From UHGV virus genome UHGV-0135847: 35,435 bases of DNA. The stretch is one strand, 5' to 3'. This DNA comes from a virus. The stretch's first letter is position 1. Every line of letters starts with the position of its first letter. Made by a program: the position numbers and the translations under genes. This document shows, piece by piece, positions 1-34,553 of this stretch. The notes beneath the pieces were generated by a model that was not told the origin of the DNA, made no database searches, and worked only from the letters and a program-made list of their open reading frames with translations.

Positions 1-1002
1 TTACCCTCTATTGTCAAAAGGGTTCAATTCAACAGCAGCCTCTAAATGACCTGGAGCAAAATGCGCATAACGCATAGTCATTTTTATATCGCTATGCCCC
101 AGTATTTTTTGCAACACAAGAATATTTCCGCCCCGCATCATAAAATGACTGGCAAACGTGTGACGTAGCACATGAGTTAATTGCCCATCAGGAAGCTCGA
201 TCTTCGCTCTCTTAATTGCAGCGTCAAAAGCCTCATAACATGGTGAAAATAGCGCTCCTCGTTTTTTAGGAAGCATAGCTTGCAATTGAGGTGAAATCGG
301 TACAGTGCGGTTCTTCTTTCCTTTAGTTTTAACAAATGTGATTCGACCGGGCAGTACTTGAGATTGCTTTAATCCTTCTGCTTCACTCCACCGAGCACCA
401 GTCGCAAGCCCAATACGGACAACAACCCCCAAATCTTTATTCCGTGACTCATCACACGCAATCAGAAGGCGTTCAATCTCATCTACATACAGAAACGCCA
501 GTTCCTTTTCTTCCTCACGAAACTTGCGAATACCGGTCAGGGGGTTTTCACCAGACCACTCTCCAAGGCGCTTCAGTTCGGCAAAAACAGCATGTAGATA
601 TGACTGCTCGCGATTAACGGTTGCTTCACTAAGTTTTTTCTTCCCCTTGGGATTCCATTCTCCTGATAGCCTTCTTTCCCGATAAGTAGCAAACATATTT
701 TTGTCAAACTGAGAAGCAAATGGATCTCCCAGCCTGGAACAAATCGCCTCAAGTTTGACTTTGCGCTCTGCACCAGAGGACAAGGTTTTACCGTACATCT
801 CAAACCAGCGAGCAATCAACTCAGAAAGACGAGGACCAGAACCATCTTGAAACTCGTCTCCAACTCTACTATTCATTAAACGGCGCTCATAAGAGAGCGC
901 CTCACTTTTTGTCGCAAACTGTTTACGAATGCGTTTTCCCGATGCCCCGTAGGGATAACATTCGCAAAGCCATTTACCTGATGGAATCTTACGAACCGAC
1001 AT
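1..1002 (-). CDS. int: Tyrosine-recombinase phage integrase
   Basis: 333 aa; C-terminal catalytic region with HxLRHT and terminal RYAHF Tyr motif typical of P2/186 integrases; stop codon at bases 1-3. Confidence 0.9.
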   Translation of the reverse strand: MSVRKIPSGKWLCECYPYGASGKRIRKQFATKSEALSYERRLMNSRVGDEFQDGSGPRLSELIARWFEMYGKTLSSGAERKVKLEAICSRLGDPFASQFDKNMFATYRERRLSGEWNPKGKKKLSEATVNREQSYLHAVFAELKRLGEWSGENPLTGIRKFREEEKELAFLYVDEIERLLIACDESRNKDLGVVVRIGLATGARWSEAEGLKQSQVLPGRITFVKTKGKKNRTVPISPQLQAMLPKKRGALFSPCYEAFDAAIKRAKIELPDGQLTHVLRHTFASHFMMRGGNILVLQKILGHSDIKMTMRYAHFAPGHLEAAVELNPFDNRG

Positions 1003-1007
1003 TTTAG

Positions 1008-1355
1008 TTACTTATCACATAAATCAAATGCAGCCTTAGTGACATCCCCCAGACTCTTTTTTAACCCTGGGGCGGCATCATTATCTAGCCAAAATGGATT
1101 ATTGTTATCTAACGGTAACGCACCAAATGTTTTACCTTTTATTCGAGCCAAACCTGTAAGTGCATATAACTTATTATCGTCAAAATTCATCACATAAGGA
1201 TTACCATCAAGACACTGTAATTGAACCTCATCAGTATTAAATGGCCATACCCCATTGAAACTCTCACGTTCAATAGTTTTAAAAGGCATTGCGACGGCGG
1301 AAAAAGAAAACATAGATAAAAAAGTAACTAATAGTTGAACCTTTTTTACTTTCAT
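1008..1355 (-). CDS. Small secreted (signal-peptide) protein of unknown function, lysogen-expressed cargo
   Basis: 115 aa; N-terminal MKVKKVQLLVTFLSMFSFSAVA looks like a Sec signal peptide with AxA cleavage site; two Cys in mature part; GAGGT RBS; 5 nt upstream of int start on same strand. Confidence 0.6.
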   Translation of the reverse strand: MKVKKVQLLVTFLSMFSFSAVAMPFKTIERESFNGVWPFNTDEVQLQCLDGNPYVMNFDDNKLYALTGLARIKGKTFGALPLDNNNPFWLDNDAAPGLKKSLGDVTKAAFDLCDK

Positions 1356-1384
1356 ATCATTACCTCAATTTAGCTCAAGTAAGA

Positions 1385-2035
1385 TTACAAATTAAAAAAC
1401 GCCCTAGAAATGACACCGCCTACCAAAACCCCTACGCAGATAAAGAATATTATTTCTTTTGGATAAAGTCGGATTAATTCTGAAGCACGAAGTCGGACTT
1501 CTGGTAAGGTCGAACTCTCTGTGTGGCTTGATGCCGATTGTTGCTCTAACCACGACAATGCAGACTGTAACTGAGAACGAGTAAGATCGTTTAAACGTCC
1601 TGTACCGAAATTGATATGGCAATACCGCAGAAGTTTTTGTCGAAGTCCACAGTCTTCACTGTTACGTAGTAATAAACTTACAAGAGCCTTACAGGCATCA
1701 TGATCTTTACATCGCTCAAGCATTGCATGCAGAAAACTCTCCGCTGTTTTATATTGATTTACTGTCATATCATCAATACCAGCTACACCAATCTCCGCAT
1801 GTACTTTTTGCCAAATAATAAACGCTTCAGTATTGCTAGCTTCTGCAATAGCAGCAACCAAGCTATTTAGCTCCTTACGCTGAGCCTTAAGCAAAGGGCG
1901 ATCGTCATCATCATTATTCGAAGGGATTGCGATATTGACGGTATGAGAACCATCATATCGCTCTATCTGAATATTCTTTTCGTGAAAATCACGCCCAGCA
2001 ACGCGATTGTTTGAACCGTTTGAGTTGACGGCCAT
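1385..2035 (-). CDS. Hypothetical protein with C-terminal transmembrane anchor, lysogen-expressed cargo
   Basis: 216 aa; strong GGGAGG RBS; hydrophobic C-terminal segment IIFFICVGVLVGGVI; N-terminus carries a 13-aa motif also present at repressor C-terminus; 15 nt downstream of repressor stop. Confidence 0.6.
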   Translation of the reverse strand: MAVNSNGSNNRVAGRDFHEKNIQIERYDGSHTVNIAIPSNNDDDDRPLLKAQRKELNSLVAAIAEASNTEAFIIWQKVHAEIGVAGIDDMTVNQYKTAESFLHAMLERCKDHDACKALVSLLLRNSEDCGLRQKLLRYCHINFGTGRLNDLTRSQLQSALSWLEQQSASSHTESSTLPEVRLRASELIRLYPKEIIFFICVGVLVGGVISRAFFNL

Positions 2036-2050
2036 GTCACCTCCCTACTA

Positions 2051-2455
2051 TCACCTACCCTTAGTTTCGTTATAGTCACGACCAGCGATACGGTTATTAC
2101 CACCAGAAATATTTAACTCACGTCCTGATGGCTGAGTTTCCTTTTCACTGATCGCACCTTTTAAAGCCCCAATCACCGCGTTTTTCACATCTAACGAAGC
2201 TGCTCGAAAGCGAGTAATCAATTCCTGCTCATCATCGTTATAAGTTTCAGGTGAGTGAATTCCCAACACAACATACTGAACATCAAGGCCAAAACGAGAC
2301 AGCGCTGCCAAATACGCAGCATCAGGAAAGCTATCTCCTTTCTCATATCTAAGCTGAGTTAGCTTTTTGACTCCACCAATGTCGCTCATGGCAACTTGAC
2401 TAAGTCCCAATCTTTCCCTTTCCTCACGCAACCGCTGACCAATATCATTTTTCAT
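2051..2455 (-). CDS. XRE-family helix-turn-helix immunity repressor (C/CI-like); start taken at internal Met (MKNDIGQRL)
   Basis: HTH signature IGQRLREERERLGLSQVAMSDIGGVKKLTQLRYEKG near N-terminus; divergent from early operon; longer ORF in track begins 2530 but would overlap the divergent promoter. Confidence 0.75.
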   Translation of the reverse strand: MKNDIGQRLREERERLGLSQVAMSDIGGVKKLTQLRYEKGDSFPDAAYLAALSRFGLDVQYVVLGIHSPETYNDDEQELITRFRAASLDVKNAVIGALKGAISEKETQPSGRELNISGGNNRIAGRDYNETKGR

Positions 2456-2465
2456 ACAAAAAACC

Positions 2466-2489
2466 TTGACAGGTATCTTTTTTGATACC
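2466..2489. promoter_or_regulatory. Early promoter -35 (TTGACA) followed by perfect palindrome GGTATC-N6-GATACC, candidate repressor operator in the divergent switch region
   Basis: TTGACA at 2466-2471; inverted repeat GGTATCTTTTTTGATACC at 2472-2489; weak -10-like CAAAAT at 2489-2494; lies between the repressor start (2455) and first early gene (2532). Confidence 0.4.
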
Positions 2490-2531
2490 AAAATGATTTC
2501 ACGAGCTATTAGATGATCACAATATACCACT

Positions 2532-2738
2532 ATGAAACAAGTTCTTCACGATACCAGATCACGCATTCCGCGTAACACCGCCACAGGTCCAAGACTGGCA
2601 CTTCGGCTGTCCCTCGAGGAGCGAGCCGTCATTGATGAAATGGCAGCTAAAGAACAACGCTCATCCTCTAACATGGCGCGCATGATCTTCCTTCGCGGCC
2701 TAGAGCTAACCCAGAAAGAACAAAACAAATCTTCCTGA
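2532..2738 (+). CDS. Small early regulator, possible ribbon-helix-helix / Cro-like protein
   Basis: 68 aa; first gene of early operon; segment LALRLSLEERAVIDEMAAKE resembles an RHH beta-strand/helix; assignment by position and composition only. Confidence 0.45.
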   Translation: MKQVLHDTRSRIPRNTATGPRLALRLSLEERAVIDEMAAKEQRSSSNMARMIFLRGLELTQKEQNKSS

Positions 2739-2754
2739 TCAGGAGGCTAGTGGG

Positions 2755-2958
2755 ATGTCAGGTATAACCATCAATATCAATGTGAATGCCCCCTATGTAT
2801 CCCTGCAGAAATATGCAGAGATAACAGGTATCCCTCTTAATACATGCAAAAAGATGTTGGCTGACGGTCGAATTATTATCCGCCCCAAACGCGCCAAAAT
2901 GGAAAAGCCTGAAGTAAACCTTGTGGCGATGTTAAAAGACGCTTTGGCTAACAGCTAA
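2755..2958 (+). CDS. Cox/Apl-like small HTH protein (excisionase / lysogenic-promoter repressor type)
   Basis: 67 aa; PYVSLQKYAEITGIPLNTCKKMLADGRI resembles the HTH region of P2 Cox as recalled; position in early operon. Confidence 0.5.
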   Translation: MSGITININVNAPYVSLQKYAEITGIPLNTCKKMLADGRIIIRPKRAKMEKPEVNLVAMLKDALANS

Positions 2959-2979
2959 AACAATGAACAGAGCACCATC

Positions 2980-3330
2980 ATGAAAAAAAACGCTGATAAT
3001 CCATACTCCAAATTTCGTAATGGCGTAGAACGCCATGTACACCACGTCGCTACCAGTGCATCACGTAGTAACAGTCGCTATAACCTGAACGAGACGCACG
3101 CAACACCGGATGGCCACGCTGTAAAACAAATCGGCGAACATGCCTGGCTGATTGAAAAAGCTGGAATCGTGGTCCACAAATGCCCACGCAATCCGTTTAC
3201 CGGAAACCGCATTTTTGCATTGAACTGCGGCGACAATCACTTCGGGCAGGATTTCACATTATACGAAGCACTTCGCACGGTTGATCGTCTGCTTCGCGGG
3301 CAAAGTTTTATTAAACAGGCTGATTTTTAA
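2980..3330 (+). CDS. Hypothetical early protein
   Basis: 116-aa ORF in early operon; no recognisable motif. Confidence 0.45.
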   Translation: MKKNADNPYSKFRNGVERHVHHVATSASRSNSRYNLNETHATPDGHAVKQIGEHAWLIEKAGIVVHKCPRNPFTGNRIFALNCGDNHFGQDFTLYEALRTVDRLLRGQSFIKQADF

Positions 3331-3340
3331 CAGGTGCTTT

Positions 3341-3619
3341 ATGACTAAAGAGCATGCACAAGGTGTATTTATCCGTTTTATTGATTTTCGCGGTGAACTG
3401 TTATTACGCGCATCAGCCATTGACGGAGTTGTTCCATCCGAAAAAAACGCAGCTACTTACGTTTATCTGAACGGTACGCGCCTGACTGTGGAGCTTCCGT
3501 ACCAGACCGTACGAGAAATCATTAGTGAAGCTGAAAAGGCACGTCAGGTTAATGGCGATGAACCCTATATCGAAATTATTTGTATGGATTCAGAAGCTGA
3601 AATTCAGAAAGCAGATTAA
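3341..3619 (+). CDS. Hypothetical early protein (start at ATG 3341)
   Basis: ORF track 3281..3619 trimmed to first ATG after upstream stop; no motif recognised. Confidence 0.45.
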   Translation: MTKEHAQGVFIRFIDFRGELLLRASAIDGVVPSEKNAATYVYLNGTRLTVELPYQTVREIISEAEKARQVNGDEPYIEIICMDSEAEIQKAD

Positions 3620-5278: not shown

Positions 5279-5400
5279 GAAACCAGAACATGCACACACA
5301 AAAAAACCGCTTGCCATGCCGCAATCGGTCAGGTTACATTTCCGCTGCACCTCATAAAACGGGTGCCGGGATTCTCAACCCGATACAGAGCAAAGCGCAT

Positions 5401-5421
5401 AACCGCGCAAGCGGTTTTTTT
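5401..5421 (+). terminator. Candidate intrinsic terminator (AACCGC-GCAA-GCGGTT hairpin with GNRA loop followed by T7 run)
   Basis: Sequence aaccgcgcaagcggttttttt read directly; located inside the early region between ORFs. Confidence 0.45.
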
Positions 5422-5600
5422 GTGCGTACTGTATTGCCACGTCTTTTTCGCGTCAGAATTATGGCGGGGCGTACGGGGCCGACTTCGGTCGGGCCGGATT
5501 CTTTGCTCTCCGGTGTTGAGAACCCTGTACGTCTCGCCACCCCGAGATTCTCAACTCTGGATGGTGAGTTATTTCTATCACCGAGCAAAGAGGCCACACC

Positions 5601-9206: not shown

Positions 9207-10166
9207 ATGAAAATTTGTATCGACGACGGCTCCACCAACATCAAGCTGGCATGGACTGAGAACGGCGAACGCCGCAACGCCATCAGCCCGAACAGCTTCA
9301 AGTCGGAATGGTCTGCGCCGTTCGGTGGCACGCAGCCCGCGAACTACATGCTTGATGGCGTGCGCTATGGTTTTGATCCGGTCAGCGATCGCTTTGTCCA
9401 GACGACCGACACGCAATACCAGTACAGCGATGTGAATGTCATTGCCATTCATCACGCGCTGGTCAAATCAGGCATCACGCCACAGGAGGTGGATGTGGTT
9501 GTCACCCTGCCACTGAGCGAGTATTTCGACACAAACGCACAGCCGGACATGGCCAACATAAACCGCAAAAAAGCAAACGTTATGCGCCCGGTGGAATACC
9601 AGAACGGCGAAGCATTCACTATCCGTAATGTACGGGTTATGCCTGAATCCATTCCGGCTGGCTTTAAAGCACTGGCTGACATGAGTCCGTTTGAATCCCT
9701 GCTGATTGTGGATTTAGGTGGAACCACGCTGGATGTGGCAAAGGTTCAGGGACAACTGGCAGGTATCAGCCAGGTGTTTTGCGATCCACACGTAGGCGTT
9801 TCCCTGATGGCCGATGCAGTACTGTCGGTGATGGCCACTAACGGTATGCGTACCAGTCACCACATCGCCAATACCATTATCGAACATCGCCATGATGAAG
9901 CCTGGCTGCGCCAGCACATCTACAATGACGCGCATTACGCCAGCCTGATGGCGGTTATTCGTGAAAAGGAAGAAACACTGAAACAACGCGTGATCCGCGC
10001 GCTGGCGGGTTTTTCGGGTTACGGGCGGGTGATGGTTGTCGGTGGCGGGGCGGAGATTGTGGCACCCGCTATCCGCGAAGCCTGCGGAGTTAATGCGATT
10101 TTCATCGCGGACGGGGTGCCACAGTTTGCTCTGGTTAATGGGCTGTACGCAATGGACAAGGAGTAA
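9207..10166 (+). CDS. parM: ParM/StbA-like actin-type segregation ATPase
   Basis: N-terminus MKICIDDGSTNIKLAW and motifs VMPESIPAG, LIVDLGGTTLD, VVGGGAE closely follow plasmid R1 ParM (StbA) as recalled. Confidence 0.8.
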   Translation: MKICIDDGSTNIKLAWTENGERRNAISPNSFKSEWSAPFGGTQPANYMLDGVRYGFDPVSDRFVQTTDTQYQYSDVNVIAIHHALVKSGITPQEVDVVVTLPLSEYFDTNAQPDMANINRKKANVMRPVEYQNGEAFTIRNVRVMPESIPAGFKALADMSPFESLLIVDLGGTTLDVAKVQGQLAGISQVFCDPHVGVSLMADAVLSVMATNGMRTSHHIANTIIEHRHDEAWLRQHIYNDAHYASLMAVIREKEETLKQRVIRALAGFSGYGRVMVVGGGAEIVAPAIREACGVNAIFIADGVPQFALVNGLYAMDKE

Positions 10167-33413: not shown

Positions 33414-34553
33414 GTGGGAAACAATAAAGTGAAATTAGGAAGAAATGATAAGTGCTGGTGTAATTCAGGACTTAAGTATAAAAAGTGCCATCTTGGTCGA
33501 GACCGTGAAACTCCGGTATCCAAAGCCGAGGCACTGAAATTTTCAAAGTCTCTCTCGCAGAGAAAGGCATGTTATGCGCCAGCATCCATGCACGAAGATT
33601 GTGATAAACGCATCGTTCAGGCGCATACGATATCTAAGAGCAGTAGCCTTAAGGCGATCGCCGACTCCAGCAATCACGTCATGGGGGTGATAATGAACTT
33701 AGCAAGCCTGATGAGAAACAACGGAAAATGGCTTCCCGAGAAGATCGGTATCAATCAGGCATCCACTTTTACAGGATTTTGTGCAGTTCATGACAGAATC
33801 TTGTTTTCATGCCTAGAGAACGAAAAATTTACAGGCACGGACGAGCAGTGCTTTGCCTTAATGTTTCGTTCATTGTCTAAAGAAATTTACGCCAAAGAAG
33901 GGGGAGTGCTATCTTCCGATTTTGCTAAAAATGCCGATAAAGGAAAGCTACAAGTTGAACAGTATTATATTCAGAAATTAATCGACCAGCACCAAAGTGG
34001 CTTAAATGCAGCAATAATTGAATTAAATAATCTTAAAACTAGCCTCGACCGCATCCTACTTAGCAGGCAATTTTCAGAAATTGAAAGTGTTATCTTCACT
34101 TTTGCAGAGCCTTTACCAATTGTAGTTTCGTCAATTCTTTCACCGGAGAGGGATTTCGATGGGACCAAAATTCAGGATTTGAGCGATCTTACAGTGTCGG
34201 CGGAACAAGTATGTTTCAATGCTTTTTCCTGCGGAGGTAAGGGATATGTAGTGTTCAGTTGGCTGAGAACTTCAACAATTATCAGACGTTTTATACGGAC
34301 ACTAATTAAGATCCCGGCTAACAGGATGTTCAATACCCTTCTGTATTTTTTCTTCACAAAGGCCGAAAATACATATTCATCCCCTGAGTGGTGGGACAGG
34401 CTCAGTGATAAACAGCGAGAGAATATCGGCAACATGATTATGTCAGGGGTTGAATTTTTTGGCAGACCTACATCACAGGTTGATCATTCCGTTGATTATA
34501 ACGCCGCTGCACTTGAAGAGATAACATGCAGCAACAACGAAATTTGCAGCTGA
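33414..34553 (+). CDS. AT-rich cargo gene: protein with N-terminal SEC-C zinc-binding motif and ~340-aa uncharacterised domain (start GTG 33414 or GTG 33429)
   Basis: GRNDKCWCNSGLKYKKCH matches the SecA C-terminal SEC-C motif GRNDPCPCGSGKKYKQCH; rest of protein unrecognised; DNA visibly AT-rich. Confidence 0.65.
   Translation: MGNNKVKLGRNDKCWCNSGLKYKKCHLGRDRETPVSKAEALKFSKSLSQRKACYAPASMHEDCDKRIVQAHTISKSSSLKAIADSSNHVMGVIMNLASLMRNNGKWLPEKIGINQASTFTGFCAVHDRILFSCLENEKFTGTDEQCFALMFRSLSKEIYAKEGGVLSSDFAKNADKGKLQVEQYYIQKLIDQHQSGLNAAIIELNNLKTSLDRILLSRQFSEIESVIFTFAEPLPIVVSSILSPERDFDGTKIQDLSDLTVSAEQVCFNAFSCGGKGYVVFSWLRTSTIIRRFIRTLIKIPANRMFNTLLYFFFTKAENTYSSPEWWDRLSDKQRENIGNMIMSGVEFFGRPTSQVDHSVDYNAAALEEITCSNNEICS

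Follow-up and report, generated by a model that had tools for sequence, protein, structure and literature searches.

A membrane-anchored protein proposed as partner of a prophage repressor, and a YebY-like cargo gene, in the lysogeny operon of a P88-like prophage

The viral genome UHGV-0135847 (35,435 nt; "the window" denotes this whole stretch of DNA, at its full length) carries on its minus strand four open reading frames (ORFs) in the order repressor, ORF216, ORF115 and integrase (int), separated by intergenic gaps of 15, 29 and 5 nt. What are the two genes between the repressor and int, and do they belong together? An earlier interpretation made from the letters alone (here, the sequence-only reading) had mapped the four ORFs and their gaps correctly, and regarded ORF216 and ORF115 as a two-gene envelope cargo inserted in a lysogeny operon. 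The analysis presented here leans, with little more than even confidence, to another arrangement: a lysogeny operon in which ORF216 would be the membrane partner of the repressor, through mimicry between the C-terminal tail of the repressor and the N-terminal head of ORF216, and in which ORF115 would be the cargo of a variable slot located before int.

A motif shared by the repressor tail and the ORF216 head

The repressor contains an N-terminal XRE-type helix-turn-helix (HTH), a conserved helix (FRAASLDVKNAVIGAL) and a C-terminal tail, whose motif (LNISGGNNRIAGRDYNE, residues 114-130) is conserved in the repressors of many genera. A copy of this motif, VNSNGSNNRVAGRDFHE, was found at residues 3-19 of ORF216, where it is near-invariant in the family alignment (A1), and these are the only two copies in the window. 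Ten of the 17 residues are identical between tail and head, and six of those ten are specified by different codons, so that a recent gene conversion is excluded. Although the head is near-invariant across the family, it has a low predicted local distance difference test (pLDDT) score and is predicted to be disordered in the AlphaFold2 (AF2) monomer model; a head that is conserved but apparently disordered is typical of a binding motif, as expected.

Tail and head co-vary in this motif from one lineage to another, Mu-like phages of Pseudomonas and Gilliamella included. In the Pseudomonas Mu-like phage the tail QQFNGPVGTVTSGDVVN accompanies the head QQFHDRVHQVAAGDIKN of a Flk_N-like, tail-anchored partner, while in the Gilliamella Mu-like phage the tail KQVFNSKVSGQVSAENIYN accompanies the head EQNFYGQVDQVAANNIYN of a partner with two transmembrane (TM) segments and no Flk_N domain. 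Two contigs from IMG/VR pair FHGNVGQVVEGSITN with FHGDVGQVAAGNINN, on a 2-TM partner, and QVFHGAVSGGVAARDIIN with QEFQGNVDGGVAGRDIVN, on a 269-aa membrane protein without a match to Flk_N. The constant elements of the partners are thus the head and the membrane anchor, and the Flk_N domain is optional, some partners being 2-TM proteins that lack it.

For 14 motif types, the local alignment scores of the cognate tail-head pairs summed to 566, against 343±35 for permuted pairings (none of 50,000 permutations reached 566) and 256±15 for composition-preserving shuffles. When the comparison was extended to 23 clusters, cognate pairs scored 814 against 506±48. When the heads were ranked for each of the 14 tails, the cognate head was first for six and second for four. 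These results suggest that the match between tail and head has been maintained, because one ancient duplication followed by independent drift would leave cognate pairs no more alike than the others.

Mu-like transposable phages with the same repressor family and a head-bearing membrane protein were observed in Pseudomonas (L031, 3501-4523) and Gilliamella (L026, 3501-4367), and at four more loci (L148, L180, L151 and L189), with rve transposase or AAA_22 domains, a holin and SLT among the neighbours. Several of these Mu-like partners are small 2-TM proteins without a Flk_N domain. A scan of IMG/VR with the Pseudomonas partner protein as query gave no matches.

It could be argued that the similarity between tail and head has no function, being a by-product of duplication or of recombination at the junction, and that ORF216 is an ordinary moron next to the repressor. 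The two motif copies are just ~90 nt apart, and recombination at module boundaries is frequent in phage immunity regions. We find this explanation barely credible, since the identical residues are mostly specified by different codons, cognate pairs are more alike than non-cognate ones, and in both proteins the motif ranks with the most conserved stretches while the flanking linkers vary; moreover, P2-like and Mu-like phages alike preserve the linkage.

ORF216 is linked to the repressor

The sequence-only reading had found no recognisable family for either protein between the repressor and int, which did not hold: ORF115 is a DUF2511/YebY protein (see below), and ORF216 belongs to Pfam family PF27202 (Flk_N), an assignment precomputed for homologues 94-98% identical to it, and matches PHROG 5825 (E 4e-103). 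ORF216 also matches the NCBIfam Flk model PRK10715 (E 8.6e-16; 58.1 bits against an equivalog cut-off of 353; profile positions 20-149 of 339) and aligns to residues 26-146 of E. coli Flk with 28% identity over 121 residues (BLASTP, E 2e-10). The profile of the ORF216 family had no matches among PDB sequences. In the hydropathy profile a single segment is strongly hydrophobic (residues 195-213 of 216, with a Kyte-Doolittle mean of 2.36 over 19 residues), and ORF216 is therefore C-terminally anchored, as had been read from the sequence before, with the head on the cytoplasmic side of the membrane. The AF2 model (pLDDT 74) comprises low-confidence residues 1-44, a confident helical domain up to about residue 172, a linker and a C-terminal TM helix.

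The Flk_N gene is located directly after this class of repressor in ~95 loci from Escherichia, Klebsiella, Salmonella, Erwinia, Enterobacter, Hafnia, Mixta, Rosenbergiella, Izhakiella, Arsenophonus and IMG/VR contigs, and in intact loci it starts 2-34 nt past the repressor stop. The one exception was an Erwinia locus with a YebY gene between the two. The Flk_N gene accompanies the repressor class that bears the tail; a related P2-like repressor without the tail has other genes next to it and no Flk_N. The repressor homologues (n = 232, about 127-135 aa, from Enterobacterales and beyond) are mosaic: the DNA-binding domain types have been exchanged separately from the C-terminal part and the Flk_N gene. 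In some loci two tandem repressor genes, both tail-bearing, precede the Flk_N gene (L064 2129-2985; L021 3069-3966). ORF216 is the conserved partner of the repressor and a fixed component of the immunity module, not cargo.

Fused HTH-Flk_N proteins (a Rosetta-stone test) were absent among the 232 repressor homologues and 137 Flk_N representatives. The repressor and ORF216 are in the same frame in the window, and a fusion by read-through or frameshift was considered and rejected, because three stop codons (TGA, TAG and TAG) intervene and the junctions of other loci are out of frame or overlapping.

The homology to Flk raises the possibility that ORF216 is a phage copy of Flk that alters flagellar type III secretion or motility, resulting in lysogenic conversion or in the exclusion of flagellotropic phages. 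Flk keeps the export gate of the flagellum locked in its early mode (PMC13344023), and the sequence homology described above (PRK10715, E 8.6e-16; BLASTP, 28% identity) is accompanied by the same tail-anchored topology. However, the score of ORF216 (58 against 353 bits) is far under the Flk equivalog cut-off, it has one Flk_N unit instead of two, its head is absent from Flk, and partners elsewhere have no Flk_N domain. The gene is also present in insect endosymbionts, and abounds in Klebsiella pneumoniae (members of one 90%-identity cluster are found on 754 contigs, and the index lists 1,158 blocks). This species is classically non-flagellate, and its large share in the distribution makes a flagellum-specific role unlikely; as a whole, we consider the Flk-copy explanation very unlikely.

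A variable slot before int, occupied here by ORF115

Comparison of the repressor-int junction across relatives showed the variable cargo that the sequence-only reading had proposed to look for. In the ~95 loci, between 76 and 1850 nt separate the Flk_N gene from int, and this interval contains at least eight unrelated cargo families besides DUF2511. DUF2511 itself occupies 47 loci, mostly as near-identical E. coli copies, followed by a BRCT+WYL protein of 288-295 aa that matches PADLOC WYL models (16 loci) and an acidic DUF8087 protein (14 loci). The other contents are a 242-aa membrane protein, a zinc-ribbon protein together with a tail-anchored coiled-coil protein, a 236-aa zinc-ribbon/TM protein, a TerB+BRCT protein (PADLOC candidate PDC-S48, E 3e-9) and a 137-aa secreted protein. 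In some E. coli prophages DUF8087 replaces DUF2511 at the same yecA site and with the same int, and in Erwinia the YebY gene is found on the other side of the Flk_N gene, between it and the repressor. The TerB+BRCT cargo is homologous to Orf2 of Vibrio phage K139 (32% identity, E 3e-47), and therefore the same accessory family fills the repressor-int interval in distant Peduoviridae. The slot is a hypervariable site for accessory genes, an ordinary moron hotspot, and some of its contents are defence-like.

The BRCT+WYL and TerB+BRCT cargo genes are located at L004 5647-6513, L098 3648-4535, L108 3551-4447 and L028 4594-5298, and at L191 2194-3099. The pair before int consists of a 117-131-aa zinc-ribbon-like protein and a 135-163-aa tail-anchored coiled-coil protein (L023 3857-4632; L095 3647-4419; L100 4654-5503), and was found in prophages with the Flk_N module as well as in one whose repressor lacks the tail.

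ORF115 matched the DUF2511 family of Pfam (PF10709) with 28.4 bits, above the gathering score of 21, over profile positions 2-87 of 87, and PHROG 2950 with an E-value of 9e-40. It was also related to E. coli YebY (7n0j) by phmmer (E 0.0027). Foldseek comparison of the ORF115 model, of modest quality (pLDDT 62), against the PDB placed YebY (7n0j; E 9e-4, probability 1.00, target-normalised TM-score 0.75) and MlbQ (2mvo; probability 1.00) at the top, with no other significant match, and the identity to YebY over the structural alignment was about 30%. The predicted fold is that of YebY and MlbQ, a four-stranded sheet with helices. YebY has a stabilising disulfide between Cys48 and Cys113 and a conserved Trp37 (PMC8689200); the three residues are present in ORF115 and invariant in the alignment of its family (A3). 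A signal peptide is predicted at residues 1-22, MKVKKVQLLVTFLSMFSFSAVA followed by MPF, with typical n, h and c regions ending in AVA before M, in agreement with the sequence-only reading.

ORF115 is outside the yobA-yebZ-yebY (CopC/CopD) operon context, its neighbours being the repressor, the Flk_N protein and int; that context marks the AZY subgroup and not the whole DUF2511 Pfam family. In Enterobacteriaceae, yebY has already been remarked upon as lying between the genes of a phage CI repressor and a XerD-like recombinase (PMC8689200), so this context of yebY was noticed before, though unexplained. ORF115 is real cargo, a horizontally acquired protein with the YebY/MlbQ fold, predicted to be Sec-exported and disulfide-stabilised. 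Judging from its position and from its fold, which resembles that of binders of small envelope-active ligands (MlbQ, which binds a lantibiotic) or of weak copper binders (YebY), its role might be envelope-level protection; this is our best guess, and one of low confidence.

With both proteins assigned, the idea that ORF216 and ORF115 form one envelope module, inserted as a unit and devoted to superinfection exclusion or defence, can be weighed. The genes are neighbours, probably co-transcribed in the lysogen, and encode one membrane-anchored and one secreted protein; their types co-occur in E. coli, Rosenbergiella and some IMG/VR contigs, and K139 has a two-gene insert (orf2-glo) with an annotated exclusion phenotype at the same place. 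However, homologues of ORF216 usually occur without DUF2511 (194 Flk_N-type against 18 DUF2511 homologues at E<=0.001 in the searched collection), the slot after ORF216 holds at least eight other gene families, the order is reversed in Erwinia, and the periplasmic part of ORF216 is essentially nil, leaving nothing to contact ORF115. In PADLOC-DB v2 neither protein had a match at E<=0.1, and the repressor gave nothing relevant. We consider such a unit decidedly unlikely. From the two-gene cargo of the sequence-only reading there remains ORF115, as cargo of a variable slot, while ORF216 goes with the repressor. Its suggestion of an exclusion or defence layout is consistent with the GC-poor region, the defence-like slot genes and the K139 parallel, but found no support in the PADLOC search, where neither protein matched a defence system.

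Organisation of the operon and of the switch region

The coordinates of the features are listed in Table 1. Homologues of the repressor begin at the same MKNDIG as the 134-aa reading from ATG. A terminator scan of the minus strand of positions 1-3400 found no terminator-like sites, and the four-gene block has one internal promoter-like site, which is weak (the promoter scan found 3 sites, with 6.8 expected by chance). A single transcription unit is plausible, because terminators are absent and the sole internal promoter-like site is at chance level; the layout and the lack of terminators thus support the one lysogeny operon of the sequence-only reading, in which the four genes would be co-transcribed. 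Its claim of a ribosome-binding site before each gene held in part: clear Shine-Dalgarno sequences were found before ORF216 (GGGAGG) and ORF115 (GAGG), that of the repressor is weak and none is obvious before int, which is probably translated by coupling. The GC content of the four genes is 0.35-0.45, against 0.52 for the window, with the lowest value in ORF115 (0.35).

Table 1. Features of the lysogeny operon and the facing switch region in the window.
Feature	Coordinates	Strand	Basis or remarks
Tyrosine integrase (int), last gene of the operon	1..1002	-	Int_N and Phage_integrase domain matches
ORF115, 115 aa, secreted DUF2511/YebY-fold protein	1008..1355	-	Pfam, PHROG, phmmer, Foldseek
Predicted signal peptide of ORF115	1290..1355	-	
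ORF216, 216 aa, tail-anchored inner-membrane Flk_N protein	1385..2035	-	Pfam, NCBIfam, PHROG 5825
C-terminal TM anchor of ORF216, about residues 192-214	1394..1462	-	Hydropathy; AF2 helix 192-214, then only 2-3 residues
Flk_N helical domain of ORF216, about residues 45-172	1520..1903	-	AF2 model
Head motif of ORF216	1979..2029	-	Copy of the repressor tail
Prophage repressor, 134 aa from ATG, XRE-type HTH	2051..2455	-	HTH_31/HTH_3 and PHROG repressor families
Tail motif of the repressor	2066..2116	-	Conserved in repressors of many genera
Early (lytic) promoter-like site, TTGACA-17-CAAAAT	2466..2494	+	Promoter scan
Perfect palindrome GGTATC-N6-GATACC	2472..2489		Inverted-repeat search
Half-site ATACCA	2524..2529		39 nt downstream
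Arc-like RHH gene, 68 aa	2532..2738	+	PHROG 3431, E 1e-28
Half-site GATACCA	2550..2556		66 nt downstream
Cox-like excisionase/repressor gene	2755..2958	+	PHROG 575

The switch region facing the repressor operon is defined by the divergent Arc-like and Cox-like early genes. The perfect palindrome falls in the spacer of the early promoter-like site, between its -35 and -10 hexamers, and the two additional half-sites are within the start of the Arc-like gene; together they are probable operators of the repressor. A LexA box search gave a single chance-level match, far from this region. In RefSeq a 45-aa minus-strand ORF is annotated at L003 5545-5682, where the window has the Arc-like gene, and this RefSeq call is probably wrong.

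Further along the plus strand, an isrK Hfq-binding small RNA (5347-5421; 63 bits) and a C4 antisense RNA (5457-5544; 78.5 bits) are directly followed by the gene for a 76-aa protein of the 'Derepression' family (PF25738; 5601-5831). This cluster looks like a c4-controlled antirepressor module of the P1/P7 style, that is, a second layer of immunity. The Derepression protein is a candidate for a third party that would recognise both the repressor tail and the ORF216 head.

Prophage context and distribution

The window corresponds to a P88-like prophage (genus Xuanwuvirus, family Peduoviridae), integrated beside yecA in E. coli genomes. Its positions 1-3400 are present in 507 of 5,426 complete E. 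coli genomes, many O157:H7 strains among them, presence being defined by at least 80% coverage of the region, mostly at 95% identity or more. The repressor/Flk_N module is also common in prophages of Klebsiella, Salmonella, Enterobacter, Serratia and Erwinia. Among 50,697 deposited phage genomes there was one carrier of the module, Escherichia phage 520873, in which both genes are unannotated, and prophages with this immunity module may rarely be recovered as free phage. In the same phage, int is annotated as two split coding sequences, and each of the two genes is aligned by tblastn in three pieces.

In phage P88, which belongs to the same genus, int is directly beside a 94-aa P2-type C repressor, and the earlier comparison with P2 was fair because P88 has these two genes adjacent. 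The sequence-only reading had deduced from that adjacency that the pair is an insertion. The extra genes are real with respect to P2 and P88, but the whole immunity region differs from that of P88, with an XRE-type 134-aa repressor opposite the Arc-like and Cox-like genes.

Two accessory genes of the prophage, unrelated to the subject treated here, were also recorded on the plus strand: a ParM/StbA-type actin-like segregation protein (9207-10166; E 2e-82) and, near the right end, a 379-aa protein with an N-terminal SEC-C motif (33414-34553).

Proposed mechanism and its rivals

The comparisons suggest that the repressor tail and the ORF216 head interact physically, with a regulatory outcome. 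The cytoplasmic Flk_N domain of ORF216 would be held at the inner membrane by the C-terminal anchor, and tail and head would bind each other, or compete for one common partner. In this way the repressor would be tethered or titrated by the membrane protein, or would restrain it, and immunity or induction would be modulated. The short or overlapping gene junctions could favour co-translational assembly. Transcription reading through from the repressor promoter would provide ORF115 in the lysogen, where it could bind a periplasmic target, either a component of an incoming phage (like K139 Glo and T4 Spackle) or an envelope-active compound (like MlbQ).

Several points weigh against this proposal. 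The cognate head is not the best match of the tail in some lineages (ranks 8-12, in L148, L173 and L171), the permutation test behind the cognate score of 566 leaves shared ancestry partly in place, and a third, co-evolving factor bound by both motifs could alternatively account for the co-variation. In the AF2 monomer model the head has no fold, and control may run either way, from the partner to the repressor or the reverse. Co-transcription of the four genes is deduced from spacing and the lack of terminators. As for ORF115, the studied DUF2511 relatives have ties with copper delivery and with the binding of lantibiotics and none with phage, no PADLOC match was found, and the BLASTP comparison with K139 Glo (E 7.5) indicates no homology.

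The tail/head pair could also be read as a guarded effector or addiction system, in which ORF216 and its 2-TM analogues would be membrane-damaging effectors, with the head inhibited by the repressor tail in an antitoxin-like manner and released when the repressor is lost or inactivated by induction, by the antirepressor of an invading phage or by prophage loss; in an extreme version the motifs would act in an amyloid-like way. An HTH protein with a C-terminal tail and a tightly coupled next gene is the layout of type II toxin-antitoxin systems, and the repressor gave weak matches to antitoxin families. The partners are small membrane proteins of varied architecture, with the head alone in common, and the motif is short, terminal and G/N/Q-rich with alternating hydrophobic residues, and shared by the products of adjacent genes. 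In these features it resembles the bacterial amyloid signalling motifs reportedly described by Dyrka and colleagues in 2020. On the other hand, the homology of the Flk_N domain is to a non-toxic regulator, Flk (PMC13344023), a single tail anchor is atypical for a pore-former, neither ORF216 nor the repressor has NLR or Bell-type Pfam matches, and the module is stably carried in 507 of the 5,426 complete E. coli genomes. We regard a guarded effector as rather unlikely.

A related reading, which we consider unlikely, is that tail and head form a homotypic, possibly amyloid-like signalling pair that links the state of the prophage repressor to a membrane effector, or the reverse. Loss of the repressor, or an attack on it, would trigger a membrane-level response such as abortive infection, addiction or commitment to lysis; alternatively, a membrane cue would convert the repressor and lead to induction.

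Novelty and significance

Literature searches combining Flk with prophage, and tail-anchored with repressor, returned nothing relevant, and no description of mimicry between a repressor and a membrane partner was found. Such mimicry looks new in form, based on a known principle, and widespread, while ORF115 is a new member of a known family. Should tail/head mimicry truly couple the membrane partner to the repressor, the control of immunity or induction would take place at the inner membrane in a large class of temperate phages; if the homotypic reading is true, P2-like and Mu-like phages of Proteobacteria would share a lysis-lysogeny or immunity control of a new class. The slot before int is a compact and easily located hotspot of presumably lysogen-expressed accessory genes in Peduoviridae (YebY-like, BRCT/WYL, TerB-BRCT and DUF8087), adding to the known P2 defence hotspots, and ORF115 provides the uncharacterised DUF2511 family with a second, testable biological context.

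Comparison with known systems

The closest layout is that of the P2-family Vibrio phage K139, whose lysogenic PL operon (cI-orf2-glo-int, according to the NC_003313 annotation) also has two extra genes between repressor and int. Glo is a periplasmic protein encoded beside int and annotated with phage exclusion, and ORF115 resembles it in position and predicted signal peptide; Orf2, a BRCT protein, is homologous to one of the slot cargo types in relatives of this prophage. K139 differs in its CI-type repressor (Phage_CI_repr and Phage_CI_C), which lacks the tail motif, in the absence of a Flk_N partner, and in that Glo is not homologous to ORF115.

ORF115 shares the Pfam domain, fold, signal peptide, Trp37 and cysteine pair with YebY, from the E. 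coli yobA-yebZ-yebY operon, and with MlbQ, the lantibiotic self-resistance lipoprotein of Microbispora. The setting is different, a copper operon and a lantibiotic cluster respectively, in contrast to the prophage that encodes ORF115.

ORF216 shares with Flk the Flk_N helical domain, the C-terminal anchor and the cytoplasmic orientation (PMC13344023). Flk is longer (331 aa), with two Flk_N units and a Pro/Gly-rich N-terminus, while ORF216 has 216 aa, one unit and a repressor-like head. Their genomic locations also differ, since Flk is encoded between pdxB and yfcJ and ORF216 in a prophage immunity operon; ORF216 is also present in non-flagellate hosts.

For the tail/head pair itself, a precedent is found in the SinI/SinR and SlrA/SlrR systems of Bacillus subtilis, where the antagonist encoded beside the repressor carries a copy of its C-terminal oligomerisation segment. 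The 17-residue motif fits this pattern, as a segment from the C-terminal end of an HTH repressor recurs in the product of the neighbouring gene. SinI is soluble and its shared element is helical, whereas ORF216 is membrane-anchored, its motif is terminal and G/N/Q-rich, the context is a phage, and binding is proposed.

Homotypic adaptor and amyloid systems offer the other parallel. The effector-associated domains of Kaur and colleagues (2020) are said to be homotypic adaptors common to adjacent genes of conflict systems. The resemblance lies in a pair of C-terminal and N-terminal motifs in neighbouring gene products, co-varying by locus, with a partner that is often a membrane-targeting effector. 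Neither a NLR/STAND sensor nor a Bell/HeLo-type effector is present here, and a prophage repressor would be the sensor side.

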